Of a DNA stretch of 64,000 bases, positions 5,075 through 62,483 are shown one piece after another. Below the pieces are notes generated by a model, which had not been told where the DNA came from, did no database searches, and worked only from the letters and a program-made list of their open reading frames with translations. Both the position numbers and the translations under genes were made by a program. Source of the DNA: an uncultured Candidatus Saccharibacteria bacterium (GTDB lineage: Bacteria > Patescibacteriota > Saccharimonadia > Saccharimonadales > JAGQNJ01). The stretch covers positions 241 through 64,240 of the forward strand of contig CAZNZL010000003.1 of NCBI GenBank assembly GCA_964577565.1, written 5' to 3'. How positions within the stretch are numbered: the stretch's first letter is position 1; the number at the start of each line of letters is the position of its first letter.

Positions 5075-5981
5075 ATTTTTTACCGGCGCTAATAAGCACG
5101 AACTTACGCAAGCACTTCAGCAAGCGGTGGCGGGTTTTGTAAAACGCCACGGCGACTTGGCGGTAGAGCGTATTGACGCAGAAGAGGCTAATCCAGATCA
5201 AATAATAGAAGCTACGCAAAGTGTATCGTTTTTGGCGCCTGCCAAAATGATAGTTATTTCTAATGCCAACGGCAAAGATTTGCTTGAAAAACTGGTTGAA
5301 CTTGAAGTAGTTGATACAACCGAGGTAATTGCGGTTATACCAAAAGTAGATAAACGTGCCCAGTATTATAAAAAACTGCAAAAGCACCCAGACTTTACAT
5401 TGTTTGAAGAGGTTGCACCACAACAATTACCAAAATGGTTGCAAGCGCAAGTAGTTGCAGGCGGCGGCACTATTTCTCTGGCGGATGCGCGCTATCTTAT
5501 TGAGCGGGTGGGGACTAATCAGTTGCAACTTAGTAATGAAGTTCAAAAATTACTTTTATATAACGACACAATTACCAAAAGTTCGATCGATGCCTTAACG
5601 GAACCCTTACCACAAACCACGGTTTTTCAGCTTATAGAAGCGGCTTTTGGTGGCAACCTCAGGCGCGCAATAGAAATTTACCACGAACAACGCGCACAAA
5701 AAGTAGAACCACATGCGATTGTTGGCATGATCGCCTGGCAGCTACATATTTTGGCGGTTATCAAGGCAGCGGGTAATAGGCCGCAAGATGAGATCGCCAA
5801 ACAAGCCAAGCTAAACCCCTTCGTTGTAAAGAAAAGCTCAGCAATTGCTAAACGAATGTCGCTAACAACCATAAAACAACTTGTGAGCGATGCCATTGCA
5901 CTTGATAAAGCGCTAAAAACCACCTCGATCGATGCTGACGAAGCCGTCCAGACCTATTTATTGAAGTTGCCTATTTCTTAG
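5067..5981 (+). CDS. holA: DNA polymerase III delta subunit
   Basis: Size, position and a delta-like N-terminal pattern. ATGATTAA overlaps the mutM stop. The upstream TTG at 5010 is rejected. Confidence 0.7.
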   Translation: MIKFFTGANKHELTQALQQAVAGFVKRHGDLAVERIDAEEANPDQIIEATQSVSFLAPAKMIVISNANGKDLLEKLVELEVVDTTEVIAVIPKVDKRAQYYKKLQKHPDFTLFEEVAPQQLPKWLQAQVVAGGGTISLADARYLIERVGTNQLQLSNEVQKLLLYNDTITKSSIDALTEPLPQTTVFQLIEAAFGGNLRRAIEIYHEQRAQKVEPHAIVGMIAWQLHILAVIKAAGNRPQDEIAKQAKLNPFVVKKSSAIAKRMSLTTIKQLVSDAIALDKALKTTSIDADEAVQTYLLKLPIS

Positions 5982-6348
5982 TAGGGGTCTTTTTTGCGGC
6001 TGGTTTTTTAGCCACAGGTTTCTTGGCAGGAGCTTTTTTGGTTGCTGCAGGCTTAGTAGCTTTTTTGGCAGCAGCTGAGGTTGGTTTAACGCCGGCAGCT
6101 TTAGCAGCTTCGGCAAGTTTAGCTTTTTTACGGGCAGCTGTATTTTTATGAAGCACGCCTTTTTTTACCGCTGTATCAATAGCACTTTGAGCTTCTTTTT
6201 GAAGTTCAGGAGCTTTCTTTTTATCGCTAATCAGGCTAGCGAGAAACGCTTTGGTTGCGCCGCGGTAGCTTCGCTTAGTTTTACGGTTGCGAATAGTTGC
6301 TTTTGTGGCAACTCGAACACGCTTTTTTGCAGATTTGATAATTGGCAT
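5971..6348 (-). CDS. rpsT: 30S ribosomal protein S20 with an Ala/Lys/Pro-rich C-terminal extension
   Basis: MPIIKSAKKRVRV... S20 signature. The tail is AAKKATKPAATKKAPAKKPVAKKPAAKK. Confidence 0.92.
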   Translation of the reverse strand: MPIIKSAKKRVRVATKATIRNRKTKRSYRGATKAFLASLISDKKKAPELQKEAQSAIDTAVKKGVLHKNTAARKKAKLAEAAKAAGVKPTSAAAKKATKPAATKKAPAKKPVAKKPAAKKTPTKK

Positions 6349-6387: not shown

Positions 6388-6416
6388 ACTATAGCGCATT
6401 ACCTCTGTTTTGTAAA
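6388..6416 (-). promoter_or_regulatory. rpsT promoter (TTTACA-17-TATAGT on the minus strand)
   Basis: Hexamers at 6411-6416 and 6388-6393 with a 17-nt spacer. An AAGAGGA Shine-Dalgarno sequence lies before the ATG. Confidence 0.6.
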
Positions 6417-6455
6417 GAGGCTTACCGCGGGCCTTATCCGCCTTCTAGAAATCCC

Positions 6456-6549
6456 GTTTCGCTCGCTTGCTAACGCAAGCTACGAGCGACCCACTTTTCT
6501 CAGTAGCAAGAAAAGATGGGGCAAAAGTGCCACTGGCGACTGTCAGTTC
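6456..6549 (-). repeat. structured intergenic repeat family 1, copy A
   Basis: About 95% identical over ~95 nt to the reverse complement of 21689-21783. Contains two strong hairpins. Confidence 0.85.
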
Positions 6550-6693
6550 TTGGCTTGTTCGTTGTTAAGAGCTACCATACTTGTCACTGTGTTGTAGGGT
6601 TATATCACGCCTACAACTTCGCAACTACGCTCTAATGGTAGCTTTAACACTCACTAGTCCAGGAACTGTCAGAGCCAGGAATAGAGGCGATCC

Positions 6694-7077
6694 TTACACG
6701 TATGGGTTATCAAAAAGTTGTTTTAGGTTCAGCTGTTTAGGGTGAATGCCCTGGCTTTCGGCAAATTGTACTATGGTATCAAGCTCATCCTTATTATTCG
6801 CAGCGAACAGGATTGCCCTTGGTAGTACAATATACAGCCTGTCTTTATTAACTAAATGAAAATACCATCCTGGAGTCTTTAAATTCTGTGCCACTTTTTC
6901 AAGAACAACCCATAGTTTATGCTCTTCAACGTCAATGTTATAAAACGTGACTACTCCCCGAAAAGACTCACCTTCAAGTTTGGTCTTGCGCGATCCGACT
7001 ACTTTAGTACTTTTCAAAATCTCAACAGAGTTTTCAACCGATTCTGCAATAAGTACACCTTTATAGATTACGGACAT
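6694..7077 (-). CDS. hypothetical protein (127 aa)
   Basis: Clean ORF with no recognised family. Confidence 0.65.
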   Translation of the reverse strand: MSVIYKGVLIAESVENSVEILKSTKVVGSRKTKLEGESFRGVVTFYNIDVEEHKLWVVLEKVAQNLKTPGWYFHLVNKDRLYIVLPRAILFAANNKDELDTIVQFAESQGIHPKQLNLKQLFDNPYV

Positions 7078-7261
7078 GCAATTATTGTATCATTCCTGAT
7101 AGTTAGATGTTCTCCGCGGCTTTCTTTGTGTGGCTTGGCTTGCTCCTGGTACAAGGTGCGTCAAAAATACAATTAAAGCCTGAGGACTTGTTTGATCCGG
7201 CAAATGCCGGGGAGTTGTCCGAAGCATTGTATTTATTGACAAGCACCTTGCCAAGAGTAAA

Positions 7262-7344
7262 CCATTGCCACGAGGGGTTTTGCCTTCTTTTGACCCAAGT
7301 GCAAAAGAAGGTCGCTGGTAGCTTGCGTTAGCAAGCGGGCGAAA
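7262..7344 (+). repeat. structured intergenic repeat family 1, diverged copy C
   Basis: Same architecture as 21689-21783. The first hairpin stem is rewritten with compensatory changes (CCTTCTTTTG/CAAAAGAAGG). Confidence 0.7.
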
Positions 7345-7505
7345 GAATAAGTATTCACAAAACTTGTCCGGCCGGACAAAAAGTGAGAATAATTATTGCC
7401 GAAACAAAAAGAAACATGAAGCTTGGTTCTTTGCTCAAGAGCGCTACTCTAGACATGGCAACCCGGTTATGGTAGTCTGACAATATATTCTAACGAAACA
7501 AAAAA

Positions 7506-9182: not shown

Positions 9183-9225
9183 ACAGCGTGCTATTAATCG
9201 ACAAGCCAAAGGGCTGGACGAGTCA
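9183..9225 (+). repeat. 43-bp direct repeat, copy 1 (truB 5' coding sequence)
   Basis: Identical to 9332-9374. Confidence 0.95.
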
Positions 9226-9231
9226 CACAAC

Positions 9232-9302
9232 TGAGACAAACCTACGGTTTTTCTCGTCGCGCCGGCAAAATGGTGCGACATTTTGTCGGGCTGCTCTTTT
9301 CC
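9232..9302 (-). repeat. structured intergenic repeat family 2, copy 1
   Basis: TGAGAC...TTTTCTCGTCGCGCCGG, then a CAAAATG/CATTTTG hairpin, then TCGGGCTGCTCTTTTCC. Near-identical flanks occur at 22851-22917. Confidence 0.8.
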
Positions 9303-9324: not shown

Positions 9325-10062
9325 ATGTTAAACAGCGTGCTATTAATCGACAAGCCAAAGGGCTGGACGAGTCATGACGTGGTTGCTAAAGTTCGTTCCC
9401 TTATTCGGCAGGGAAATGTAACGCAGTTGAAAAAACTCGGGATTTCGCATTTTGATGCAGTGCAAGGTGGCCAGGCACTACGAAAGATCCGTGTAGGGCA
9501 TGCGGGTACGCTGGACCCATTGGCTACCGGACTGCTCATTGTATTGGTTGGTAAAGCTACCAAGCGCCAAGATGAGTTTATGAAGCAAGATAAAGTTTAT
9601 GAAGTAACACTCCATTTAGGTCAAACAAGTACCACAGCAGATGCAGAAGGCGAAAAAACAGTAGTATCAACCAAAAAACCAAGCCAAGAAGAGGTAAAGA
9701 AGGCCCTGCAGTCATTTGTTGGCACGATTCAACAGGTGCCACCGGTTTTTTCAGCCATTAAAGTTGACGGTAAGCGTGCCTATAAATTGGCGCGAGCCGG
9801 CAAAGAAGTTGCACTAGAGCCTCGAACAGTCACCATTTATTCAGTTAATGACGTTAGCTATGGCTATCCGCATGTTCGGTTTACGACGAAAGTATCAAGC
9901 GGTACGTATATTCGATCATTGGCTGTCGATATAGGTGATAGGCTACAAACCGGAGCCTATATGTCAGATTTACACCGAACAGCTATCGGCAATTTTAACG
10001 TTTCTGAGGCGCAAAACATTGATGAACTGGATCCATCGGAGCGTAACTCTGTTGAGACGTGA
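9325..10062 (+). CDS. truB: tRNA pseudouridine(55) synthase
   Basis: LLIDKPKGWTSHDVV and GHAGTLDPLATGLL catalytic-Asp motif. Confidence 0.92.
   Translation: MLNSVLLIDKPKGWTSHDVVAKVRSLIRQGNVTQLKKLGISHFDAVQGGQALRKIRVGHAGTLDPLATGLLIVLVGKATKRQDEFMKQDKVYEVTLHLGQTSTTADAEGEKTVVSTKKPSQEEVKKALQSFVGTIQQVPPVFSAIKVDGKRAYKLARAGKEVALEPRTVTIYSVNDVSYGYPHVRFTTKVSSGTYIRSLAVDIGDRLQTGAYMSDLHRTAIGNFNVSEAQNIDELDPSERNSVET
9332..9374 (+). repeat. 43-bp direct repeat, copy 2 (inside functional truB)
   Basis: Identical to 9183-9225. Confidence 0.95.
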
Positions 10063-10631: not shown

Positions 10632-12809
10632 ATGCACCAAAATTTTACCTGGAAAGAGAGCGAGTATATTTTGGGAAAAACTATAAATCCACTCGGAAAA
10701 AAAATAACCTCTGTCTCGACAGAATTTTGCGGACAAAAACTAGAACTTGAAGTTGGTCGGGTAGGCTTTCGGTCTACATCAGCAGTGATTGCTCGATACG
10801 GCGAAACAGTTGTACTAGCAACTGCTATGGTTGGCGATAAGCCCTTGCAGGGTTTTGACTACTTTCCTTTGAGTATTGATTACGAAGAAAAAATGTATGC
10901 AGCAGGCAAAATTAGCGGCTCACGCTTTATTAAGCGAGAGGGTCGCCCAAGCGAAGACGCCATTTTAATTGGTCGCTTGATTGATCGCCCAATCCGCCCC
11001 CTGTGGCCAAAAGGTTATCGCCACGAAGTGCAGGGTGTAGCAACCGTTTTAAGCATGGACCCAGCTTTTCGGCCTGACATGGTTGCGATGGTTGCCATGA
11101 GTGCTGCTTTTATGCTTACGGGCGCACCATTTGAAGGCCCAATTGCCGGCGTTCGAGTTGGTATTAAAAACGGTAAGCCGCAAGCCTTCATGAGTAATCA
11201 AGAGCTTACTAACGGCAAGCTTGACCTTGTGGTGGCTGGTACCAAAGACGCCATAATGATGGTTGAAGCTGGCGCCAACGAGGTAGCCGAAGAGGAGCTA
11301 ACGACTGCGCTTGAGTTTGCACAAAAAGCCATAAAACCAGCTGTTGAGCTACAAGAAGAATTGGTTAAAAAAGTTGGCGTGTCAGCGCAAGCGTATGAAC
11401 TGAGCCTGCCTGATAAAGATATTCAACAGCGCGTTGAGACATGGCTAGAAGGTAAATTGGGCGCTGGTTTGCGAGCGCCGTATCCTGAGCGTAATAACCT
11501 TGTCAACAACCTGCGCAGTCAAATGCAAGAGCACTTTAAAGAAGAGCTCGGCGAAGAAGCATTTGCTGAATTGCGACAAGAATATGATGATGCGTTCGTA
11601 CTAGCCACCCATAAAGATGTACGCAAGGGTATTATTGAAGAAGGTATTCGTCCTGACGGCCGTACATTAACTGAAGTTCGTCAACTTTCAAGCGAGATTG
11701 GTATTTTACCGCGTGCCCATGGTTCAAGTTTATTTACCCGTGGCGTCACGCAGGCTATGAACATCGTCACCCTAGCGCCTTTAAGTTACGCTCAGCTGGT
11801 TGACACCATGGAAAAAGACGAAGAAAAGCGCTATATGCACCACTACAATGCACCTGGTTATACTGTTGGCGAGGTGCGTCGGTTAGGCAGCCCTGGCCGT
11901 CGAGAAATTGGCCATAGCGCATTGGCAGAGCGGGCGTTACAAGCGGTATTGCCAAGTGAAGCAGACTTTCCATACGCCATCAGAAGCGTAACCGAGATCA
12001 TGAGCCAGAATGGTTCTACCAGCATGGCTGCAACCTGCGCCAGCTGTTTGGCCTTGCTTGATGCGGGTGTTCCATTGAAGCGGCCTGTCAGTGGTATTGC
12101 CATGGGGTTGATGATGAATGGTAGCGATCCAATTATCTTAACCGATATTGCTGACGCCGAAGATTTTGCCGGCGATATGGACTTTAAAGTTACCGGTACG
12201 TCAAAAGGCATTACCGCACTGCAAATGGATATGAAAGTACATGGACTACCAGTTACGGTGCTTGCCCAAGCACTAGAGCAGGCTAAAGAAGGTCGCGCCC
12301 ATATTTTGGCGCACATGCTCGAAACCATCGACCAACCCAATGAAATGAGCCAATATGCCCCACGCGTTGAGGCCATTAAAATAAACCCAGAGAAAATCCG
12401 TGATGTTATTGGTAAGGGCGGTGAAACCATCAATAAGATCATTGCTGAAACCGGTGCTGAAATTGATATTAAAGACGACGGTACGGTAATGATTGCCAGC
12501 CCTGATAAGACATCAATTGACGCCGCCATTCAATGGGTTAAAAACTTAACCGCCGAGCCAGAAGTCGGCAAAATTTATGAGAATTGCCGAGTTGTTAGTG
12601 TGCTTGATTTCGGTGCCTTTGTAGAGATTATGCCTGGGCATGAGGGTTTGGTACACGTGAGCGAAATGAAAGAAGAGCGCGTTAACAAGCCGAGCGATGT
12701 TGTCAGCGAGGGCGACCGCGTAAGCGTAAAATTAGTAGCTATTGATGACCGTGGCAGGCTACAATTAAGTATGAAAGCTGCCACACGAGAAAAGAAAAAT
12801 AAGGGATAA
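10632..12809 (+). CDS. pnp: polynucleotide phosphorylase
   Basis: Two RNase PH domains, then KH (GKGGETINKI) and S1 domains, in rpsO-pnp synteny. The start is uncertain: ATG 10632 lies 6 nt after TATATT, with TTG 10671 as an alternative. TTG 10578 is rejected. Confidence 0.9.
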   Translation: MHQNFTWKESEYILGKTINPLGKKITSVSTEFCGQKLELEVGRVGFRSTSAVIARYGETVVLATAMVGDKPLQGFDYFPLSIDYEEKMYAAGKISGSRFIKREGRPSEDAILIGRLIDRPIRPLWPKGYRHEVQGVATVLSMDPAFRPDMVAMVAMSAAFMLTGAPFEGPIAGVRVGIKNGKPQAFMSNQELTNGKLDLVVAGTKDAIMMVEAGANEVAEEELTTALEFAQKAIKPAVELQEELVKKVGVSAQAYELSLPDKDIQQRVETWLEGKLGAGLRAPYPERNNLVNNLRSQMQEHFKEELGEEAFAELRQEYDDAFVLATHKDVRKGIIEEGIRPDGRTLTEVRQLSSEIGILPRAHGSSLFTRGVTQAMNIVTLAPLSYAQLVDTMEKDEEKRYMHHYNAPGYTVGEVRRLGSPGRREIGHSALAERALQAVLPSEADFPYAIRSVTEIMSQNGSTSMAATCASCLALLDAGVPLKRPVSGIAMGLMMNGSDPIILTDIADAEDFAGDMDFKVTGTSKGITALQMDMKVHGLPVTVLAQALEQAKEGRAHILAHMLETIDQPNEMSQYAPRVEAIKINPEKIRDVIGKGGETINKIIAETGAEIDIKDDGTVMIASPDKTSIDAAIQWVKNLTAEPEVGKIYENCRVVSVLDFGAFVEIMPGHEGLVHVSEMKEERVNKPSDVVSEGDRVSVKLVAIDDRGRLQLSMKAATREKKNKG

Positions 12810-15757: not shown

Positions 15758-15849
15758 ATAACTTTTATAAGTGCTCATGATAAAATATATTAGAGACTAT
15801 TGTTTATGTATATGCATGCAAAGTCTAAAAGATAACAGGAGCACTTACT

Positions 15850-16677
15850 ATGCCAACAGACGGTGAACCATCAGGTCAAGATCCAAACTTTGATGATGAG
15901 GTAGTTCAGAGAGCACATGAGATACTTGAAGGTGCTCATGATACCCTTATGGATGAAAAGTATCATAGAACTAGAATTGATGACCATGAGAGTACGATGA
16001 GTGTGCTAGCAAGTGGCGATAATCCAGACACGCCGTTACCTCATGATAGGGGGACATTATTAGATCTTGCAGACATCAAGTATCAGAAATCGTATGATGC
16101 AGGCGAAATTGATGGACCATTTGAGTTTCCTTCAGTACGAGCAAATCGACTAAGGAGAGAGGCTGCACAAGAAGGCCGACCACCAATACTAGAAAATATT
16201 GGCGATTATAAACGTGTTGTTCACCAACCTATTCGACCTGAAAACCCAGAAGATGAAGTGTTCTTAGATGACTATCGAAAAAAGCTTGAATCACGTGATT
16301 GGGATTCAATAAGCGATGCCGATAGTGAACGGGCTAGGCGGATTCACAATGAATTTGAAAAAAAACGCAAACAACAAAAGCTAGATGAAGTTGCTGTCGT
16401 AATGGAAAATTTACCCGCTGGTTCAGCCGTTATAGAAGAAGTCATAAGGGATAATGACGCAATACAACCACAACATTCTACAGTATGGTTACGTTGCGAA
16501 GATCCAGAACAAGCAGCAAGATATGTATACAAAGCTGGCGATGATTACTACGAACCTGGCCCAGGTGAATATGACGGAATCCATACAGGACGCTATATTT
16601 ATGTAAAAGGAAGTGATGGTACTGTTCAAGAGGTAAAAAAGGCGGATATTATACCCTATAACGAGTACTACTTCTAA
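15850..16677 (+). CDS. hypothetical acidic protein (275 aa)
   Basis: Long ORF with a CAGGAG Shine-Dalgarno sequence. No family recognised. Confidence 0.65.
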   Translation: MPTDGEPSGQDPNFDDEVVQRAHEILEGAHDTLMDEKYHRTRIDDHESTMSVLASGDNPDTPLPHDRGTLLDLADIKYQKSYDAGEIDGPFEFPSVRANRLRREAAQEGRPPILENIGDYKRVVHQPIRPENPEDEVFLDDYRKKLESRDWDSISDADSERARRIHNEFEKKRKQQKLDEVAVVMENLPAGSAVIEEVIRDNDAIQPQHSTVWLRCEDPEQAARYVYKAGDDYYEPGPGEYDGIHTGRYIYVKGSDGTVQEVKKADIIPYNEYYF

Positions 16678-17392
16678 ATTGGACAGAACGCTCAGATGTT
16701 TCGTCCTTCAGTAATTCGTTCATTAATTCTTTCAATTGTTCTGTATGCTCTGGTAGCCAGCTCATGAGAGCGTGTGAAGCACCATTTAGCTCTATGAAAG
16801 TTAAGTTCTTCGAGGCTGCTTTGAGCAGTTCAATGACATCTTGAGGGATTACATCGTCCTTGTCGCCAATGCAGATGACCGTTTTACCCTCATAGTCAGC
16901 AAGATATTTGATTGCATTGCTAGTCCGCCAGCTATCCGGTTCACGCAGCTTATCTGTAAAAATATCTGTACCGAAAGGCAAATCTTGAACATCGGCTCGG
17001 TAAATTGCTGGGCACCCAAGTAAAATTGCCTCTATACGGCTGCCATAATATGGCAATAGGTCACATACCGTATGTGCTCCCATGCTGAAACCTATTAAAT
17101 ACAAGCCTCTGCCCGACGGAATCAAGGCATTAATAACACCTATCGTTTGCTGCTTACGTCTTTCTAATGACAGCTTCGCTAATGTGCCGCTGCTCTCACC
17201 GTGCCCTGATAGGTCAAAGAGTATGACACCGACACCACGTTTGAGTAATTCTTCGGCGACAGGGTAGTATTTTTTACGCTGTGTTTTTGCGCCACCGCCG
17301 TGGATGATAACAGCATTTTTATCTGCTAGTTTGTACTCGCAAACAATGCTTTCGCCATTAACTTCTAAAATTATCTGCTTTAAGTTCTGCAT
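16649..17392 (-). CDS. alpha/beta-fold hydrolase
   Basis: HGGG oxyanion region and nucleophile elbow GFSMGA. TATTAT lies 6 nt upstream of ATG 17392. The upstream extension to 17491 is rejected. Confidence 0.8.
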   Translation of the reverse strand: MQNLKQIILEVNGESIVCEYKLADKNAVIIHGGGAKTQRKKYYPVAEELLKRGVGVILFDLSGHGESSGTLAKLSLERRKQQTIGVINALIPSGRGLYLIGFSMGAHTVCDLLPYYGSRIEAILLGCPAIYRADVQDLPFGTDIFTDKLREPDSWRTSNAIKYLADYEGKTVICIGDKDDVIPQDVIELLKAASKNLTFIELNGASHALMSWLPEHTEQLKELMNELLKDETSERSVQFRSSTRYRV

Positions 17393-17454
17393 GACTAAAT
17401 AATAGCAGGACTTGGGAATATAATTCTGTTCAGCCAGTCTGATATACTTCCCAT

Positions 17455-18414
17455 ATGGATGAAATAGATAAATCACAAGAGATACAAACACCTGAACAAT
17501 TAGCAGCTGCGGAGCTTAGTAGATTTGCGAGCAATGAAGGACTGGATGAGTTAGCCTCGTTGTACGGCGTGGAGCTTCCTGAAGGAACTTTAGATCGTCT
17601 ATCTACCTTAAAGCAACTTGGCGCAGAACACTGGGACTTCCGTAAAGGCGCAGAGCGTCAGGAGGTTAACTGGGACGAGGGCCTAATTGATGAAGAAGGC
17701 AGCGAACAGCACGATGCTATCTTTGCTGCTGCAGATAAACTTGGTCTAGTGCAAGATACTGAACCTAAAAACAAACACCCAAATTCGTTAGTCATACTTG
17801 GGGGTGCGAATAGGGCTCCTCTTGACCGTCTACGATATGGTCTCGAACATGTTGAAGATTTTGATAGAGTGGCTTATCTTGGCTCATCACGAGCTGTATC
17901 TGATGCCGAACGCGAAAAGGCGGCAGAGTATGCACCTGAAGCTCAAACTGAATTTGATCTAGGCTGTGGCGCTATCGAAACATTACTCGGTGCGAAAATG
18001 ATAGATGAAATCAGTATTGAGCGCGACGGCGATACGTGGGGTATGCGCCTATATGAATTTGAAAGAAATGGCGAGATGAAGCACGGTTTTGTCTTGAGTA
18101 CACCGCAGATGATTGGTAAGCGCAGAGCAACAACTTATGATAATTACCGATTTTTCGCTGATCGAGCAGAATTAGCAGATGATCCTGGACATAGTGTTGT
18201 AGCTGTTACTACCGGCTTTTATACACAAGGCCAACACATGCCAGGTGTTCAAGAACTAACTTTGCCATTTGGTACTACTGTTGAGACGATTGGTCATAGC
18301 GCAGAGTATTCGGGTGTAACCCGTAAGGCCAGCCAACTACTGCAGGAAACGAAATCGGCAGTAGATGCTGCAGTAAGATTAGAAGCTGCAATCAATGAGC
18401 GAACTGAATCATAG
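17455..18414 (+). CDS. hypothetical protein (319 aa)
   Basis: TATACT at 17443-17448 lies 6 nt before the ATG. LVILGGANRAPLDR weakly resembles DUF218/YdcF. Confidence 0.65.
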   Translation: MDEIDKSQEIQTPEQLAAAELSRFASNEGLDELASLYGVELPEGTLDRLSTLKQLGAEHWDFRKGAERQEVNWDEGLIDEEGSEQHDAIFAAADKLGLVQDTEPKNKHPNSLVILGGANRAPLDRLRYGLEHVEDFDRVAYLGSSRAVSDAEREKAAEYAPEAQTEFDLGCGAIETLLGAKMIDEISIERDGDTWGMRLYEFERNGEMKHGFVLSTPQMIGKRRATTYDNYRFFADRAELADDPGHSVVAVTTGFYTQGQHMPGVQELTLPFGTTVETIGHSAEYSGVTRKASQLLQETKSAVDAAVRLEAAINERTES

Positions 18415-18691
18415 ACTATTAGAACGGTTTGAGTTAGTAGACGTAGACGCTCTAACACGGCCAATCCCAGAGATGGACGAGCTGAGAGAGCGTAAAAGGG
18501 CTATGGTGATATCCCGATTGATACTACTCACCCTAAGTTTGACGAACCATTGGTTAGTATTACAGATTATGGAATTGCCGGACAAGGTTACTATTCGCGA
18601 CCAAATGCAGCAACAAGGGAATCAGTACCAGACGCGCCGACTAAACAGAAGGCAATTATTGACAAACGTTGTTAAATTTGCTATAATATAA
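18395..18691 (+). pseudogene. possible frameshifted gene remnant
   Basis: The annotated frame gives an implausible Q/R/L-rich tail. A second frame from ~18496 reads GYGDIPIDTTHPKFDEPLVSITDYGIAGQGYYSRPNAATRE and resembles the N-terminus of M15 D-Ala-D-Ala dipeptidases. Confidence 0.3.
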
Positions 18692-21248: not shown

Positions 21249-21375
21249 GAACCTTATTTGCATCATCTGCTTCTGACAGTTCTTTCAAAAAGAACCAAAG
21301 CCTTTGTTCCTTTTTGTTTCGGCAAAAAAGAACCCAAAAAGCCGACTGGCGACTGAAAAACAATGATGTTCATTC

Positions 21376-21465
21376 ACGTGTCTGGTATCCGGATTCTACG
21401 TAACGACCCTTCGGGGTCGCCCGGCTACTGCCGGGTGAGCCTCGAATCACGGTATACCAGACTAC
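21376..21465. mobile_element. 90-nt MITE-like palindromic element flanked by an 8-bp direct repeat (GTTCATTC)
   Basis: Imperfect terminal inverted repeats: ACGTGTCTGGTATCCGGATTC versus the reverse complement of GAATCACGGTATACCAGACTACGT. Direct repeats at 21368-21375 and 21466-21473. Internal GACCC-ttcg-GGGTC and CCCGGC-tact-GCCGGG hairpins. Confidence 0.55.
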
Positions 21466-21688
21466 GTTCATTCTCTTCAGTTTTTCAGAGCCAGGTTTTC
21501 AGTATCAGGTGTGGCTTATTTCATACCTGGTTTAGATTACGCCAAACTTGACTTTGATTTTTTCTGGCTCTGGCAGTTCATGATGAGTGAATGTCAAATG
21601 AACAATTAAGCAAGCGACAAACTTGCCCCGTACGGGGATGCTTGTCACTGTTTGGAGCCATTGTTCTATTTGACAATGAAATTATAAA

Positions 21689-21783
21689 GAACTGGCAGTC
21701 GCCAGTGGCACTTTTGCCCCATCTTTTCTTGCTACTGAGAAAAGTGGGTCGCTGGACAGCTTGCGTTAGCAAGCGAGCGAAAC
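21689..21783 (+). repeat. structured intergenic repeat family 1, copy B
   Basis: Reverse complement of 6456-6549 at ~95% identity. Confidence 0.85.
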
Positions 21784-21832
21784 TGCAAAAACTTTGGTTA
21801 TACCTTTTGTCCATTTAAATAGGTGTTGGGGT

Positions 21833-21861
21833 TTGACAAACAGGGGTGATTTTAGTAAAAT
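21833..21861 (+). promoter_or_regulatory. rpsF operon promoter (TTGACA-17-TAAAAT)
   Basis: Consensus-like hexamers about 75 nt upstream of the GTG start. The leader contains a GC hairpin and a GGAAGGAG Shine-Dalgarno sequence. Confidence 0.7.
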
Positions 21862-21937: not shown

Positions 21938-22324
21938 GTGAATAAGTACGAACTAGCCGTACTGTATCACCCTGATCTTGAAGTAGATCTTGATAAGGGC
22001 GAACAGCGCGTTAAAAAAATCATTGAAGACAATAAGGGCAAGATTGTCGAGAGTGATAACTGGGGCAAAAAGAAGCTTGCGTACCCAATCAACAGATTAG
22101 AGTCAGCTGTATATGTGTTCTATGCAACAGAGTTAGAGCCAACCAGCCTCGCAAAAATTGAGTCAACCCTTAACATCACCGACGAAGTTATTCGTTATTT
22201 GATAGTTAAGATTGACCCTAAAGAAGAAGCAAAAGTCGCGGCAGCCAAAGAAGCCGCCGCCAAGAAGCAAGCAGCACGTGCCGAAGCCGCAAACGATGAT
22301 TCAAAAGAAGAACCCGAAGAATAA
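21938..22324 (+). CDS. rpsF: 30S ribosomal protein S6 (GTG start) with an acidic/Ala-rich tail
   Basis: YELAVLYHPDLE...WGKKKLAYPI signature. Confidence 0.92.
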   Translation: MNKYELAVLYHPDLEVDLDKGEQRVKKIIEDNKGKIVESDNWGKKKLAYPINRLESAVYVFYATELEPTSLAKIESTLNITDEVIRYLIVKIDPKEEAKVAAAKEAAAKKQAARAEAANDDSKEEPEE

Positions 22325-22850: not shown

Positions 22851-22917
22851 TGAGACAACCAAGGGTTTTCTCATCGCGCCGGCAAAATGGTTCACATTTT
22901 GTCGGGCTGCTCTTTCC
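22851..22917 (-). repeat. structured intergenic repeat family 2, copy 2
   Basis: Same flanks and CAAAATG/CATTTTG stem as 9232-9302, with a different loop. Confidence 0.8.
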
Positions 22918-23374: not shown

Positions 23375-23941
23375 ATGGCGTTTGGAATTACTGATCTTAA
23401 AAAAGGCACGTTGTTTCAGTGGAATGGCGAGCCTTACAAAGTTATTGAATATGCTCAAAAAGTAATGGGCCGTGGTGGCTCAATTGTGAATGTTCGCATT
23501 AAGAGTTTGCTTGACGGTAAGGTTTTAGAAAAAACCTTTAAGGGCAATGAACAGCTAGAACCCGCAGAAGTAACAAACAAAAATGTGCAGTACTTGTATA
23601 ACGACGGTACAACCTTTTACTTCATGGAGGATGATACATACGAACAGTTTGAGATATCAGCAGACTTAATTGGTGACCAGCAAGGATATTTAAAAGAGGG
23701 TGATCGTGTAGTGGCGCAACTTTTTAACGGTAGGGTTATAAATGTAGAGTTGCCTAAAAATGTGTACCTCAAAGTTACTTATGCAGAAGATGTTGTGAAG
23801 GGTGACACAACCTCAAGCGTGCAAAAAGATGCCGAGCTAGAAACTGGCATTACCGTAAAAGTACCATCTTTTATTAAGACTGGCGATGTAATTAGCGTCG
23901 ATACAGCCACGGGGGCTTACCGTGAACGAAAAAAAGATTAG
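23375..23941 (+). CDS. efp: translation elongation factor P
   Basis: 188 aa with DLKKGTLFQWNGEPYKVIEY...GRGGSIV. Confidence 0.92.
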   Translation: MAFGITDLKKGTLFQWNGEPYKVIEYAQKVMGRGGSIVNVRIKSLLDGKVLEKTFKGNEQLEPAEVTNKNVQYLYNDGTTFYFMEDDTYEQFEISADLIGDQQGYLKEGDRVVAQLFNGRVINVELPKNVYLKVTYAEDVVKGDTTSSVQKDAELETGITVKVPSFIKTGDVISVDTATGAYRERKKD

Positions 23942-24434
23942 CTTAGAGCACGAACCTGGAGCGCTTGACCCGTCGTACTTACTGACGTATTTTGTAGAGC
24001 CAATGCAGATTGGTCGGACCTTTTCGGATTGGCCGCTGCACATAACTATCATTCCATGGTTTAGCGTTAAAAACATAGAGCAAGCCGATGAAGCGCTTGA
24101 GCAAATTGCTGGCAACCATCAACCATTAAAGGCAATTGGTTCTACGCGTGAGACTTTTGGTGAGCATGATGTGTGTTTGGTTGAGCCAGCAGACGTGCTT
24201 CGTACCATTCACAAAGCAGTTTATGCATCACTACAATCGCTTGATGCGCGCTTTATAAGCACCGAATTTTTTGGTGATAATTATAATCCCCACGTCACCA
24301 CTCAAGGCGAAGCTATTTTTGCAGTTGGTGAACATATTCTACTCAACGGCTTCTACTTAGTGCGGCGCCATCGTGAACAAGAGACGGATCAGTATGTAAA
24401 AACCATAGCTAAAAATTACAGCTTTAGCAGATAA
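23922..24434 (+). CDS. 2H phosphoesterase (LigT-like) family protein
   Basis: Two HxTx motifs (LHITIIPWF and PHVTTQG). The GTG start overlaps the efp end. Confidence 0.65.
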   Translation: MNEKKISLEHEPGALDPSYLLTYFVEPMQIGRTFSDWPLHITIIPWFSVKNIEQADEALEQIAGNHQPLKAIGSTRETFGEHDVCLVEPADVLRTIHKAVYASLQSLDARFISTEFFGDNYNPHVTTQGEAIFAVGEHILLNGFYLVRRHREQETDQYVKTIAKNYSFSR

Positions 24435-24448
24435 AAAACGCAACCACT

Positions 24449-24475
24449 TTCTAACTTTCTTAAGAATGTTAGAAT
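24449..24475. promoter_or_regulatory. near-palindromic operator overlapping the extended -10 (TGtTAGAAT) of the ArsR-family gene
   Basis: TTCTAACtTTCTT|AAGAAtGTTAGAA has 13-bp arms with 1 mismatch. The ATG lies 6 nt after the -10 box. Confidence 0.6.
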
Positions 24476-24481
24476 GAAATT

Positions 24482-24748
24482 ATGAATAGTGTTCAGAAAG
24501 CAGAGGTAGTGAAGGGTTTTTCTAACCACTACCGAATAGAAATCTTAAGATTATTGCACAAGCATCCCCGCCTTTCCGTTGAGGAAATAGCTGATGAAAT
24601 TGGGGCAGAATACAAAACGATGGCCGCCCACATCCGCCGTATGTATACAAGTGGTTTGGTTTTAAAGAGATACCGCGGTCGAAGAGTAGAGCACATCTTA
24701 ACAAAGCGCGGTCTCAATGTTCTAACATTCTTAAGAAAGTTAGCATGA
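24482..24748 (+). CDS. ArsR/SmtB-family winged-helix transcriptional regulator
   Basis: 88 aa with HYRIEILRLL...LSVEEIADEIG...AHIRRMYTSGLV. Confidence 0.8.
   Translation: MNSVQKAEVVKGFSNHYRIEILRLLHKHPRLSVEEIADEIGAEYKTMAAHIRRMYTSGLVLKRYRGRRVEHILTKRGLNVLTFLRKLA
24722..24743. promoter_or_regulatory. second copy of the operator palindrome, at the arsR-like 3' end just upstream of tlyA
   Basis: CTAACATTCTT|AAGAAAGTTAG has 11-bp arms with 1 mismatch. Confidence 0.5.
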
Positions 24749-25461
24749 AACAGAGGCTGGATGTACGGCTTTTAAATAGAAAATTTGCAGAAAGCCGCTC
24801 TCAAGCGGAGAACTTTATTAAGCTTGGCGAAGTTACGGTAGACGGCAAATTAATCACCAAGCCGGGCTATTTTGTCAGTGATTCGTCAGAAATAAAAGTG
24901 ACCGCTAATGAGCGATATGTCTCACGTGCTGGCCTTAAGCTAGCGTCAGTAGCTCAAATATTTAAACTACATTTTAAAAATAAAACCGTTTTAGATGTAG
25001 GCTCGTCTACCGGCGGGTTTACAGATTATGCTCTCCAGCATGGTGCACAAAAAGTTATTGCAGTAGATGTTGGCACTAATCAGCTGCACCCGAAGTTGCG
25101 CGCAGATAAAAGAATCGAGCTGCATGAACAAACCGACATCAGAGACTTAAAAAAGTTGACTTCAGAACCCGATATTGTCGTGATTGACGTCTCGTTTATA
25201 TCGCTTAAAGAGGTTTTGCCTCACGTATCAACACTTCTATCTAAAGACGCACTTATTGCCGCTATGTTAAAGCCGCAATTTGAAGCCGGTGCTCAGCATA
25301 AACATAAGGGAGTTATAAAAAACGAAAAAATTCGGCGCGAGATTCTAAAAGACTTTGAACAGTGGGTGAAGGGTTACTTTGTTATTTTACAAAAAGCTGA
25401 CAGCGGTATTACGGGTACAAAAGGCAACCAAGAACGATTTTATTTATTAAAAAGATCGTAG
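24745..25461 (+). CDS. tlyA: TlyA-family rRNA 2'-O-methyltransferase
   Basis: S4 domain followed by an FtsJ fold (VLDVGSSTGGFTDYAL). Confidence 0.88.
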   Translation: MKQRLDVRLLNRKFAESRSQAENFIKLGEVTVDGKLITKPGYFVSDSSEIKVTANERYVSRAGLKLASVAQIFKLHFKNKTVLDVGSSTGGFTDYALQHGAQKVIAVDVGTNQLHPKLRADKRIELHEQTDIRDLKKLTSEPDIVVIDVSFISLKEVLPHVSTLLSKDALIAAMLKPQFEAGAQHKHKGVIKNEKIRREILKDFEQWVKGYFVILQKADSGITGTKGNQERFYLLKRS

Positions 25462-27939: not shown

Positions 27940-29040
27940 TTAAACGTTAAACCGAAACTCCACCACGTCGTCTGGTTGCATTATGTAGGTTTTGCCTTCG
28001 GTCCGGACTTTGCCGGCAGCCTTGGCGGCCGTTTCTGACCCAGCCGCGATAAGATCGTGGTAATTAACCACCTGGGCGGCAATAAAACCGCGCTCAAAGT
28101 CGGTGTGAATAACGCCAGCGGCTTGCGGAGCCGTAGCTCCTTTTTTGATGGTCCAAGCCCGCACTTCTTTTTGGCCTGCGGTCAGATAACTCTGTAGCCC
28201 TAACGTTTCATAAGCCGCATGGATTAATTGTTCCAAGCCAGATTGCTCTACGTTATAACTGGCAAGTAGTTCGCTTCGATCATCCTCATCAAGGGCCTGA
28301 AGCTCGTGCTCTAGTTTGGCACAAACAAAAATACTTTGCGCATGTGGCACTAGCGTAGCCAGGGCTGCTTTTTTGCTATTGTCTGCTAGGGTGTTTTCAT
28401 CCACATTAAACACGTAGATAACTGGCTTAGCTGTCAATAATTGCAATTCGTCAAGCAGAGCTTCTCCCTCCAAATTATTTCTAACATTCTTAAGAATGTT
28501 AGAATGAAACAGGGGTATATCATTAGAAAGTTCGACGTGAATGGCACTAAGGAGCTTGACTAGCGGAGCAAGCTTTGGGTTAGCGCGGGCTTCTTTGTCT
28601 AGGCGGGGTAGGCGCTTTTCAACGGTTTGCAGATCTGCCAGCACAAGTTCAGTGTTGATAATATCTATGTCTTTTTTAGGGTCATGTGCTTCATCTACGT
28701 GCTGCACGTTTGGGTCATCAAAAGCCCGCACCACATGTGCAATCGCATTAGTGCTGCGTATATTAGCCAAAAATTGATTACCTAAACCTTCGCCCTGTGA
28801 TGCTCCGGCGACCAAACCGGCAATGTCAACAAATGTCACCGTTGCGGGCACAACTTTTTGGCTGTTGTATAACTTGGCTAATTGATTAAGCCGCTCATCG
28901 GGGATCGGTACAATACCGGTATTCGGCTCAATGGTCGCAAACGGATAATTAGCCGCCAAAATATTATTATTGGTCAGGGCATTAAACAAGGTAGACTTAC
29001 CCACATTCGGTAATCCCACAATCCCAATTGATAAACTCAT
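27940..29040 (-). CDS. ychF: ribosome-binding ATPase YchF
   Basis: GIVGLPNVGKSTLFNALT G1 motif and a TGS-like C-terminus. Confidence 0.93.
   Translation of the reverse strand: MSLSIGIVGLPNVGKSTLFNALTNNNILAANYPFATIEPNTGIVPIPDERLNQLAKLYNSQKVVPATVTFVDIAGLVAGASQGEGLGNQFLANIRSTNAIAHVVRAFDDPNVQHVDEAHDPKKDIDIINTELVLADLQTVEKRLPRLDKEARANPKLAPLVKLLSAIHVELSNDIPLFHSNILKNVRNNLEGEALLDELQLLTAKPVIYVFNVDENTLADNSKKAALATLVPHAQSIFVCAKLEHELQALDEDDRSELLASYNVEQSGLEQLIHAAYETLGLQSYLTAGQKEVRAWTIKKGATAPQAAGVIHTDFERGFIAAQVVNYHDLIAAGSETAAKAAGKVRTEGKTYIMQPDDVVEFRFNV
28479..28509. repeat. perfect 26-bp palindrome plus 5 nt, a near-identical copy of the arsR-like promoter/operator, inside the ychF coding sequence
   Basis: TTCTAACATTCTTAAGAATGTTAGAA followed by TGAAA. 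30 of 31 nt match 24449-24479. Confidence 0.9.
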
Positions 29041-49243: not shown

Positions 49244-50161
49244 CTAATCTGATTGGCGGTGAAACTTTTGGTGTACTTGCTTTAGGTGTGGGTCGGTAAC
49301 GTGTGTATATATTTGAGTGGTGGCAATGTTGCTGTGGCCGAGCAAGGCTTGGACGCTTCTTAGGTCAGCTCCGTTCATTAATAGGTCGGTCGCAAAACTA
49401 TGCCGTAAGGTATGAGGCGATACGTGTTTAGTGATACCTGCCAGCAGGGCATAGCGACTTACCATCCGTTGTATACTCCGTGCCGTAAGCCGTTTGTAAT
49501 CACCAGAACTATCAGGGTTATTCTTTTGGTTGCCATGTCGAATAAACAGGGCAGGGATGGTATCGTTGCGTTGTTCAATATAGTTCGTGAGCCATTCTGC
49601 TGCTGAATCGCTAATAAAAATTGGGCGATCTTTTTGACCCTTGCCTCTAACCATAAACTCTTTTCGCTTTAGATTGACGTGCTCTTTGTTAAGGCTGACT
49701 AACTCTGATACGCGCAAACCACTCGAGAATAATAGTTCTAAAATTGCTCTGTCTCTTAGACCTTGTAAGGTGTTAATGTTTGGTTGAGCAAATAAATTAC
49801 TCAATTCTTCAGCACTTAAAAATGTAACTTGTTTGCGAACAACTTTTGCCAACTCTATTTTGTCGGCGGGCAAGGCCTTGATTTCACGCTTAGTGCACCA
49901 TTTGAGAAAACTTCTTAACGCAATGAGATGATAGTTAAGCGTGTTTTTTTGTAGCTCTTCGCTTGTATTGGTACCCAAGCGGTTTAGCCATAAACGCCAT
50001 TTGCGAATAAAATCTTGATTAATGTCTTCAACCTTTATGTCACCGGCAAAATCTTCAAGCCGGGTGAGGTAATGATCATAATTACGAATGGTACGCTGAG
50101 AGCGATTTTGCTCAATCTCTAAGTATTCTAAAAAATCTACTTTAGCTTTATTGAATAGCAT
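49244..50161 (-). CDS. XerC/XerD-family tyrosine recombinase
   Basis: SAM-like N-domain and catalytic R...HTLRHSFAT...LLGH...TQIYTHV. TACAAT lies 6 nt upstream of ATG 50161. Confidence 0.88.
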   Translation of the reverse strand: MLFNKAKVDFLEYLEIEQNRSQRTIRNYDHYLTRLEDFAGDIKVEDINQDFIRKWRLWLNRLGTNTSEELQKNTLNYHLIALRSFLKWCTKREIKALPADKIELAKVVRKQVTFLSAEELSNLFAQPNINTLQGLRDRAILELLFSSGLRVSELVSLNKEHVNLKRKEFMVRGKGQKDRPIFISDSAAEWLTNYIEQRNDTIPALFIRHGNQKNNPDSSGDYKRLTARSIQRMVSRYALLAGITKHVSPHTLRHSFATDLLMNGADLRSVQALLGHSNIATTQIYTHVTDPHLKQVHQKFHRQSD

Positions 50162-50294
50162 ACCTATATTGTACGACCCCACACAAACATTCCCAAAACC
50201 TGCCTGAGCTGGACAATTTGAGAACGTTCTGACAAAGCGAAGGGGTTTAATGAATGGTGCTAATCTGTTAAAATGATAATAAATTCTAAACGAT

Positions 50295-53342: not shown

Positions 53343-53642
53343 ATGGCTAGTAAGTTATACGTAGGGGGTTTGCCCTACAGTACTACCGACCAAGAATTGC
53401 AAGATTTGTTTGCAGCTCATGGTACGGTTGCTTCAGCAACGGTTATTCAAGACCGCGAATCGGGCCGCTCAAAAGGCTTTGGTTTTGTGGAATTTGAATC
53501 TGCTGATGACGCTCAAGCTGCAATCAAAGCACTTGATGGTAGTGACCTTGGCGGACGCAAGATTGTCGTCAACGAGGCCCGCCCGCGCGAAGAACGCCCA
53601 TCAGGCGGCTTTAACCGCAACTCATCGTTTAGGCAACGATAG
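53343..53642 (+). CDS. RRM-type RNA-binding protein
   Basis: RNP2 (KLYVGGL) and RNP1 (KGFGFVEF) motifs. Confidence 0.9.
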   Translation: MASKLYVGGLPYSTTDQELQDLFAAHGTVASATVIQDRESGRSKGFGFVEFESADDAQAAIKALDGSDLGGRKIVVNEARPREERPSGGFNRNSSFRQR

Positions 53643-53644
53643 AC

Positions 53645-53674
53645 AAAAACCTCCTGGCAACGGGAGGTTTTTTC
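53645..53674 (+). terminator. intrinsic terminator
   Basis: AAAACCTCC-tggcaacg-GGAGGTTTTTT. Confidence 0.85.
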
Positions 53675-61340: not shown

Positions 61341-61483
61341 AAGCACTATAATTTATTCAAATGCACATACCAAAAAACTATTTTCATGATCGCATAATTT
61401 TGTTGCTCTTGAGTTCTGGGGTGTTTTTAACCGTACTAAACGCTTTATTAATCCTATTGCGTCTTGATAACAGCCGCGGCAGC
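61341..61483 (+). repeat. 143-bp perfect direct repeat, copy 1
   Basis: Identical to 62341-62483. Contains TATAAT plus the first 41 codons of the membrane-protein gene. Confidence 0.97.
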
Positions 61484-61522: not shown

Positions 61523-62296
61523 ATGGCAACAGACCCAAATACCATTAGGCATTACGACCAAAATGCCGAAGATTATCACCGTCATGTGACCAATCCGCAG
61601 GATGGGACGTACCACGCATTTTACGAAAAACCGGCTATACGCCGTGAACTGCCCAGTCTTCAAAATCTAGATGTAATCAGTATTGGCTGTGGTAGTGGGG
61701 TAGACGCACGCTGGTTAGCTGATAATGGTGCTAAAACGGTGGTGGGGGTAGACATATCAACAGGGCTACTTGAAATTGCCAGAAGAGAAAATCCTGACAT
61801 TGAGTTTATTCAGATGGATATGGAGGAGCTGGGCTTTGCCGCTGAAAGTTTTGATTTGGCCTATTCAAGCCTGGCTATTCATTATGTTGACGATTGGACA
61901 AAGTCGCTCAAAGAGGCGCGGAGAATCCTTAGGCCTGGCGGGCACTATGTGTTCTCGTGCGGTCATCCGCTCGATAGTGCCATGGAGTATATAACCGAGG
62001 GTGACTATAAGTACGCTCGACTCGGGCGACAAATTGACGTACACACTAAAAAACGCCGCATTTATGGTGATTACTTAGCGAAAGAGGGTGGCGGAATAAA
62101 GCGAATAACAGGCAAGGTTGGTGACATGGAAGTGACTTTTTATCATCGCACATTTAGCCGTATGCTTGAACATATCTGTGATTCTGGATTTACGATTGTA
62201 AGAATGGTTGAACCACAACCAATCGAAGGCGACCCAGAACACTACGAACAGCTAACAAAAACCCCTGCTTTTATGATTTGGGTACTTAAGAAGTGA
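61523..62296 (+). CDS. class I SAM-dependent methyltransferase
   Basis: Motif I (VISIGCGSGVDARWL), motif II (DLAYSSLAIHY) and LRPGGHYVFS. Confidence 0.88.
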   Translation: MATDPNTIRHYDQNAEDYHRHVTNPQDGTYHAFYEKPAIRRELPSLQNLDVISIGCGSGVDARWLADNGAKTVVGVDISTGLLEIARRENPDIEFIQMDMEELGFAAESFDLAYSSLAIHYVDDWTKSLKEARRILRPGGHYVFSCGHPLDSAMEYITEGDYKYARLGRQIDVHTKKRRIYGDYLAKEGGGIKRITGKVGDMEVTFYHRTFSRMLEHICDSGFTIVRMVEPQPIEGDPEHYEQLTKTPAFMIWVLKK

Positions 62297-62340: not shown

Positions 62341-62483
62341 AAGCACTATAATTTATTCAAATGCACATACCAAAAAACTATTTTCATGATCGCATAATTT
62401 TGTTGCTCTTGAGTTCTGGGGTGTTTTTAACCGTACTAAACGCTTTATTAATCCTATTGCGTCTTGATAACAGCCGCGGCAGC
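62341..62483 (+). repeat. 143-bp perfect direct repeat, copy 2
   Basis: Identical to 61341-61483, offset by exactly 1000 bp. Confidence 0.97.

Follow-up and report, generated by a model that had tools for sequence, protein, structure and literature searches.

Two intergenic regions of a Saccharibacteria genome, one between rpsT and a DHH-like gene and the other between ftsK and rpsF, carry inserted DNA that is bounded by inverted pairs of a strongly structured unit of about 220 nucleotides (nt). We consider it fairly probable (about 0.6) that these units constitute a new, lineage-restricted family of nonautonomous mobile repeats with structured ends, comparable to MITEs and mobile insertion cassettes (MICs). 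Both regions lie within a single stretch of 64,000 nt, the whole of which was analyzed and is here called the window. Judged from sequence comparison, the DNA that contains the units appears to have been inserted recently in this Saccharibacteria lineage; mobility itself is what we infer.

The contigs of the closest relatives, chosen via their FtsK homologues, were L052 (FtsK 93% identical) and L053 (85%), and both have the same gene order as the window. The window belongs to a genome of the Saccharimonadales, and most of the close FtsK homologues that bear a name are labeled Saccharibacteria or Saccharimonadales. The gap between rpsT and the DHH-like gene is 1,157 bp here versus 152 bp in L052 and 150 bp in L053, and that between ftsK and rpsF is 799 bp here versus 297 and 233 bp, respectively. 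Alignment indicates that window positions 6428 to 7447 stand in place of about 9 bp of L052 and that positions 21254 to 21832 stand in place of 78 bp. Both sites are empty of units in L052 and L053, such that the units are polymorphic in presence and absence at orthologous sites. A preliminary description of the window had reported a dispersed module of about 95 nt upstream of rpsT, rpsF, and the DHH-like gene; all of the copies it listed fall inside these two lineage-specific insertions.

Across relatives more broadly, the rpsT-DHH gap is mostly 150 to 215 bp and the ftsK-rpsF gap 123 to 297 bp. Gaps were likewise usually short at 49 further related loci, where the long ones hold unrelated protein genes (in some distant relatives), a pattern that marks the two sites as recurrent insertion sites. 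L052 has its own 78-nt segment between ftsK and rpsF (L052 positions 12261 to 12338), which contains GGTTCAAATCC, resembles a tRNA T-arm, and may be what is left of another insertion into this hot spot. Elsewhere in the window, a 2.9-kb segment (15761 to 18658) with three ORFs, one of them encoding an alpha/beta hydrolase, replaces about 560 bp of L052; this is a variable site that contains no units of the family described here.

The module of about 95 nt proved real but is not the whole repeat, as it makes up only the 3' third of a unit of about 220 nt. Each unit consists of a long hairpin of about 145 nt, followed by a small hairpin, hairpin 1, and hairpin 2. H0, the core of the long hairpin, includes an outer stem of 14 bp that is interrupted by one bulge. 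Scores labeled R1 refer to a covariance model covering hairpins 1 and 2. Insertion 1, between rpsT and the DHH-like gene, is about 1.0 kb long and reads on the plus strand as unit A (minus), ORF127 (minus), unit C (plus), a GC-rich palindrome, and D' (plus):

6444 to 6449: left copy of TCTAGA, a candidate target-site duplication (sequence match).
6453 to 6680, minus strand: unit A, with the H0 stem at 6564 to 6648 (folds, alignments, and pair counts).
6456 to 6551, minus strand: module A (blastn; R1, 120.7 bits; fold).
6694 to 7077, minus strand: ORF127, the putative cargo gene between units A and C (homologues, AF2 model).
7135 to 7348, plus strand: unit C, with the H0 stem at 7160 to 7240, then module C (fold, pair counts).
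7253 to 7348, plus strand: module C (R1, 89.7 bits).
7363 to 7380: GC-rich palindrome TTGTCCGGCCGGACAA, between unit C and D'; its minus strand is terminator-like.
7393 to 7447, plus strand: D', a degenerate remnant of a D-type module (40 nt, 80% identical to 21289 to 21328; alignment).
7448 to 7453: right copy of TCTAGA, overlapping the -35 region (TAGACA) of the promoter of the DHH-like gene.

Insertion 2, between ftsK and rpsF, is about 0.58 kb long, carries no gene, and consists of unit D (minus), a spacer of about 80 nt, and unit B (plus):

21267 to 21480, minus strand: unit D, diverged, with a composite hairpin H0 at 21380 to 21462, then a degenerate module.
21481 to 21562: spacer between the 5' ends of D and B, holding the inverted repeat CAGAGCCAGG...TCTGGCTCTG.
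21563 to 21786, plus strand: unit B, with the H0 stem at 21593 to 21674, then module B.
21687 to 21783, plus strand: module B (blastn; R1, 115.8 bits).

The window thus holds four units and one remnant at two sites. A (minus) and C (plus), and likewise D (minus) and B (plus), form inverted pairs whose 3' ends, with hairpin 2, face outward. Unit A lies directly downstream of the ORF127 stop codon, and its 3' part, module A (small hairpin, hairpin 1, and hairpin 2), has its outer end facing the rpsT promoter; unit D is the left, outward-facing end of insertion 2. Over their terminal 42 nt, A and C show 90% complementarity, and these inverted repeats are 804 bp apart. D and B have a common stretch of only about 20 nt. 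No promoter-like site was found in the spacer between them.

blastn detected exactly three copies of the module (A, B, and C) within the window, at the places claimed in the preliminary description, and the R1 scores agree. Identity between A and B, put at about 95% in that description, is 95.9% over 97 nt by blastn; we count this as a sign of recent spread. For module C, the blastn alignment is restricted to hairpin 2 (7310 to 7344, 94%). Its hairpin 1 had been described as rewritten with at least three compensated pairs, and we count three pairs changed on both sides relative to A and B, with every pair canonical and none broken. Both hairpins and the sequences quoted for them are as described, and hairpin 2 is constant among the three copies save for one U-A to U-G change. 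R1 with filters off revealed a fourth, degenerate module, D, at 21267 to 21364 on the minus strand (17.6 bits; E, 0.012), where hairpins 1 and 2 occur in versions peculiar to this copy. An R1 match of 15 bits at 53573 to 53672 lies in a region that seems unrelated and was taken as a chance match. The peptide shared by several ORFs, RPTFLSSKKRWGKSATGDCQF, is a reading frame through the repeat, which bears out its earlier dismissal as an artifact. It has no protein homologue, and a protein search for spurious ORFs over other copies, made with the module translated in six frames, gave no match.

The long hairpins extend the pattern seen in hairpin 1. In unit A, the outer inverted repeat of the long hairpin is CTGGCTCTGACAGTTC / GAACTGACAGTCGCCAG. 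The outer stem of H0 reads GTTAAAGCTACCAT / ATGGTAGCTCTTAAC in A, GTCAAATGAACAAT / ATTGTTCTATTTGAC in B, and GTCAAAAATACAAT / ATTGTATTTATTGAC in C; five of its 14 pairs vary among the copies, and all are canonical. An additional outer stem also covaries, being CTGGCTCTGRCAGTTC / GAACTGRCAGTCGCCAG in A and B and another complementary pair in C. The long hairpins of A and B differ strongly in sequence, although the adjoining modules are 96% identical.

The preliminary description had argued that pairing rather than sequence is conserved, and the full units make that case more strongly than it did. RNAalifold, applied to the three long units, yielded 68 pairs, of which 23 are changed on both sides. 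Paired cells amount to 93.1%, versus 32 to 50% when partners are slid by one to three columns, doubly changed pairs number 23 versus 1 to 6 with slid partners, and none of 500 shuffles reached the observed values, in a test that comprises three sequences only and a structure derived from these same sequences. Because pairing stands so far above both the slid-partner and the shuffle controls, the units are not neutral debris. The compensated changes indicate that the folded or inverted-repeat geometry matters.

Consistent with these folds, the window's four strongest-folding regions, corrected for GC content, lie in or overlap the two insertions, with folding z-scores of -8.3 for 21254 to 21800 and -5.75 for 6440 to 6700. 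The long hairpins are bordered by the motif GAACTGNCAG, of which the window contains five copies against an expected 0.44; none of the five lies outside the insertions.

We examined the borders of the insertions for target-site duplications. TCTAGA occurs only twice between 6300 and 7600, at 6444 and 7448, and the two copies flank insertion 1, with D' adjoining the right one. Homology to the relatives resumes at the right copy, and L052 has a single TCTAGA at this site. The match can be extended to TCTAGAAATCCC versus TCTAGACATGGC (9 of 12 positions), which would put the ends of the element exactly at 6456 and 7447, but such matches are prone to chance, as 27% of random 41-nt pairs share a 6-mer. 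The tips of insertion 1 (A versus D') match poorly (GTTTCGCT versus GTAGCGCT; 11 of 25 ungapped). At insertion 2, the best candidate duplication matches at 7 of 12 positions and begins with TGCA.

To characterize the genes beside the insertions, we used Pfam, which confirmed rpsT (5971 to 6348, minus strand), rpsF (21938 to 22324, plus strand), ssb, ftsK, and holA. The neighbors named in the preliminary description are therefore as stated, the gene at 7506 matching DHH only weakly. The promoters of interest are as follows:

6388 to 6416, minus strand: predicted rpsT promoter, TTTACA-17-TATAGT, outside the repeat.
21833 to 21861, plus strand: predicted rpsF promoter, TTGACA-17-TAAAAT, outside the repeat.
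6398 to 6409, minus strand, and 21839 to 21850, plus strand: AACAGRGGTRAT motif in the spacers of these predicted promoters.

The distance from the end of the module to the predicted -35 box is 39 nt for A and rpsT and 49 nt for B and rpsF, in line with the 40 to 50 nt given earlier. Since the modules are upstream of the -35 boxes, they are outside the rpsT and rpsF leaders, and both predicted promoters are kept in relatives that lack the modules. A leader or regulator role for rpsT or rpsF is not supported, and the functional link that had been suggested to rpsT, rpsF, and the DHH-like gene likewise finds no support, given this position and the absence of the modules from the closest relatives. 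The module had also been said to point the same way as its downstream gene. That is true of A, B, and C, but unit D points against ftsK. The pattern arises because the inverted pairs have their 3' ends outward: between divergent genes (rpsT and the DHH-like gene), both outward units obey the rule, and between tandem genes (ftsK and rpsF), only B does. The AACAGRGGTRAT motif, common to the rpsT and rpsF promoters, lies right after the -35 box and is also present in relatives, which suggests a common regulatory site of ribosomal-protein promoters.

ORF127, the gene enclosed by units A and C, has its own promoter-like site. It is a real protein family, with 24 homologues that are all 119 to 129 amino acids long and share several invariant residues; those with a source name come from Saccharibacteria. 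The AF2 model (pLDDT, 91.6) has a ferredoxin-like alpha/beta fold. ORF127 was considered as a transposase or nuclease and rejected, as it has no match in Pfam or PADLOC and a marginal one in PHROG (E, 0.095), and its model has no significant match in the PDB. Its homologues occupy varied accessory islands with genes for 2'-5' RNA ligase, CYTH, aminoglycoside phosphotransferase/acetyltransferase, and toxin-antitoxin pairs, and one such island has relaxase- and recombinase-like genes. Units were found at none of the loci of the ORF127 homologues. ORF127 is a passenger, not the mobilizing enzyme. The idea of a cassette array was also dropped, since the spacers around one homologue (L115) are without repeated structured units.

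We next consider searches for related elements and for a partner enzyme. The further copies and covariation for which the preliminary description had looked to related genomes did not appear: R1 had no match in 617 kb of related Saccharibacteria DNA or, with filters off, in the closest loci. The Rfam scan that it had proposed identified only four tRNAs in the window at the gathering threshold and, at E values up to 10, nothing credible over either insertion, so that no family matches the units. An exact scan of GTDB genomes with an 18-mer from hairpin 2 returned 51 loci, in Campylobacteraceae, Bradyrhizobium-like, clostridial, and other genomes. Similarity to the module ends there at 19 to 38 nt (19 to 25 nt in all but three), and we rejected these loci as relatives because they are the centers of unrelated hairpin repeats in other phyla, matched by chance. 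One of these hairpin repeats, gtcattgcgAGCTTGCGTTAGCAAGCGtggcaatcc, occurs 13 times in one Campylobacteraceae MAG (L002 to L049) and once in a Methylocystaceae MAG (L028); it is a multicopy REP-like family unrelated to the window. A 25-mer gave no hits in JGI metagenomes and viral contigs, a 19-base gapped pattern common to A, B, and D gave none in viral contigs, and blastn found no match in phage and plasmid collections. A literature search found nothing relevant. Because no related element was present in the other genomes searched, mobility rests on a single lineage comparison.

Among the window ORFs tested, none encodes a transposase or other partner enzyme, and the only recombinase is a Xer-like tyrosine recombinase at 49244 to 50182, 28 kb or more from either insertion; no invertase or integrase is next to either one. 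Read on the reverse strand, the combination of small hairpins with one long hairpin recalls a retron; this reading was discarded, as there is no reverse transcriptase and there are no flanking a1/a2 repeats. A sigma-54-like reading of TGGCAC-TTTTGC was discarded for its wrong spacing.

Several other repeats in the window are distinct from the units. A perfect direct repeat of 143 nt, at 61341 to 61483 and 62341 to 62483, is spaced by exactly 1,000 nt just after tRNA-Asp, brackets a methyltransferase gene (61523 to 62296), and holds the 5' end of the next ORF; a recent insertion by single crossover or an artifact of assembly could account for it. The 5' end of truB is repeated perfectly over 43 nt (9183 to 9225 and 9332 to 9374), bracketing about 106 nt with a terminator-like repeat, and a short decoy ORF upstream of truB results. 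A second intergenic repeat family, a hairpin CCGGCAAAATG...CATTTTGTCGG followed by a T-rich run, lies at 9235 to 9274, after the DHH-like gene, and at 22852 to 22891, after ssb; unlike the units, it is also found in L052 (2797 to 2864). The palindrome TTCTAACWTTCTTAAGAAWGTTAGAA followed by TGAAA has three copies (24449 to 24485, 24720 to 24756, and 28479 to 28515), two of which lie on either side of the spacer that follows a gene of the 2'-5' RNA ligase family (23922 to 24434). This gene sits between efp and an ftsJ-like gene and is missing at that place in L053. The palindrome copies look like an operator or another insertion-associated repeat.

Taken as mobile repeats, the unit pairs would bound DNA inserted at permissive, promoter-proximal intergenic sites that vary across the group. 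The A/C pair, together with D', would enclose the accessory gene ORF127 in the manner of a MIC, and the D/B pair, enclosing a spacer only, would be MITE-like. A transposase or recombinase whose gene lies elsewhere may act on the structured ends. The compensated changes would then have arisen because the enzyme needs the hairpin or inverted-repeat geometry for recognition. Stabilization of the 3' end of the ORF127 transcript, or a block to incoming antisense transcription, would be possible secondary effects.

That the units are instead a structured RNA gene or a part of one, whether a small RNA of about 220 nt or a 3' or 5' untranslated element on neighboring transcripts, seems to us quite unlikely. 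Such an RNA would fit the strong covariation in all helices and the position of unit A just after the ORF127 stop codon, hence in the 3' end of an mRNA. It would also fit the folding of the forward strand, which is better by 2 to 8 kcal/mol in four of four units and counts against the mobile-repeat reading, and the few G-U pairs that become A-C if the strand is reversed, although forward G-U pairs stand to A-C mismatches at about 3 to 2, which is not decisive for strand. Yet none of the units has a sigma-70-like promoter in front of it or a terminator of its own, hairpin 2 lacks a U-tract behind it, B and D sit behind the strong canonical terminator of ftsK, and unit A would enter a transcript solely at the 3' end of the ORF127 message. 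The position of the modules outside the rpsT and rpsF leaders, their absence from close relatives with the same promoters, and the lack of an Rfam match also speak against it. An unlikely further reading takes the units for the ends of a so far undescribed cargo-carrying mobile element of Saccharibacteria (CPR bacteria), recognized through folded single-stranded DNA or RNA and not through terminal sequence, or else for a new structured-RNA class carried along with small accessory genes; in either case it would be understandable that compensated changes rewrite the long helices and leave only the outermost hairpin constant.

If the inverted modules were recombination sites, they might delimit an invertible ORF127 segment or serve as gene-cassette attachment sites. 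The 42-nt inverted repeats of A and C around a gene with a promoter-like site, the shape of hairpin 2 (an imperfect inverted repeat with a 4-nt center), and the presence of other small insertions with perfect direct repeats in this genome are compatible with such sites. We nevertheless hold them very unlikely given the distance to the Xer-like gene with no invertase or integrase adjacent, the short common stretch of D and B, and the cassette-like gene spacers around ORF127 homologues elsewhere, which are without units; moreover, inversion of the segment would have no obvious regulatory effect. Highly improbable, too, is that terminators or other ordinary hairpins between genes gave rise to the copies through segmental duplication or gene conversion, with neither mobility nor further function. 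The copies are few and all within 15 kb, and other terminator-like repeats are common to intergenic regions here and in L052. Neutral decay, however, would not leave many helix positions changed yet paired, and these hairpins are without U-tracts, occur in inverted pairs at the borders of inserted DNA, and are missing from both sites in the relatives.

To our knowledge, the mobile DNA of the reduced Saccharibacteria genomes is poorly described. If the units are mobile repeats, this locus offers a concrete case: DNA of recent acquisition, an accessory gene among it, lies between members of a small repeat family that depends on structure and directly adjoins strong ribosomal-protein promoters. 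It also illustrates that a regulatory RNA is not proved by compensated base pairs alone; in this case, the question is settled by comparison with close relatives. Recognition of the units in folded form would point to an unknown mobilizing enzyme in the phylum.

Among known systems, ribosomal-protein leaders (S6:S18 of rpsF and S20 of rpsT) resemble the units in placing structure near rpsF and rpsT. Those leaders follow the promoter, as parts of the 5' untranslated region, and have been conserved in relatives, whereas the modules are upstream of the -35 boxes and missing in relatives. Integron attC sites are single imperfect hairpins with R''/R' cores (RYYYAAC / GTTRRRY) that lie beside an integrase and a cassette array; the units have no such cores at their ends and no integron integrase nearby.

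Pneumococcal BOX, enterobacterial ERIC and BIME, and Neisseria Correia repeats are, like the units, modular, strongly folding, intergenic, and often near promoters, and they can alter transcript stability or supply promoters. These families are species-wide and of high copy number, and Correia elements carry 26-bp repeats at their termini and duplicate a TA; the units match none of them by sequence or model. REPs and REPINs, which are mobilized by RAYT, share with the units the arrangement of intergenic nested hairpins in inverted doublets. REPs, 20 to 40 nt long and marked by a conserved tetranucleotide at the 5' end, reach copy numbers of tens to hundreds near a RAYT gene. In contrast, the units are about 220 nt long with four to five copies in the window; no such tetranucleotide, high copy number, or RAYT gene was seen there, and no IS200-like gene was among the tested ORFs. 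Bertels and Rainey reportedly found in 2011 that the hairpin structure of REPs and REPINs is preserved by selection.

MITEs and MICs, such as MIC231 of Bacillus cereus, are small, free of transposase genes, and bounded by inverted ends. The insertions described here are likewise small and free of transposase genes, and their inverted unit pairs may correspond to such ends, with 90% complementarity over 42 nt in A and C but poorly matching tips in insertion 1 and only about 20 nt in common between D and B. We know of no parent insertion sequence with the same tips as the units. MITE and MIC ends are short, near-identical terminal repeats, unlike the hairpin-rich ends of about 220 nt seen here, which have diverged with compensated pairs. 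A short flanking duplication is possible in both cases, TCTAGA being the candidate here, although not statistically secure. As with MITEs and MICs, the insertions are intergenic, are present or absent between close relatives, and exist in versions with and without a passenger gene.
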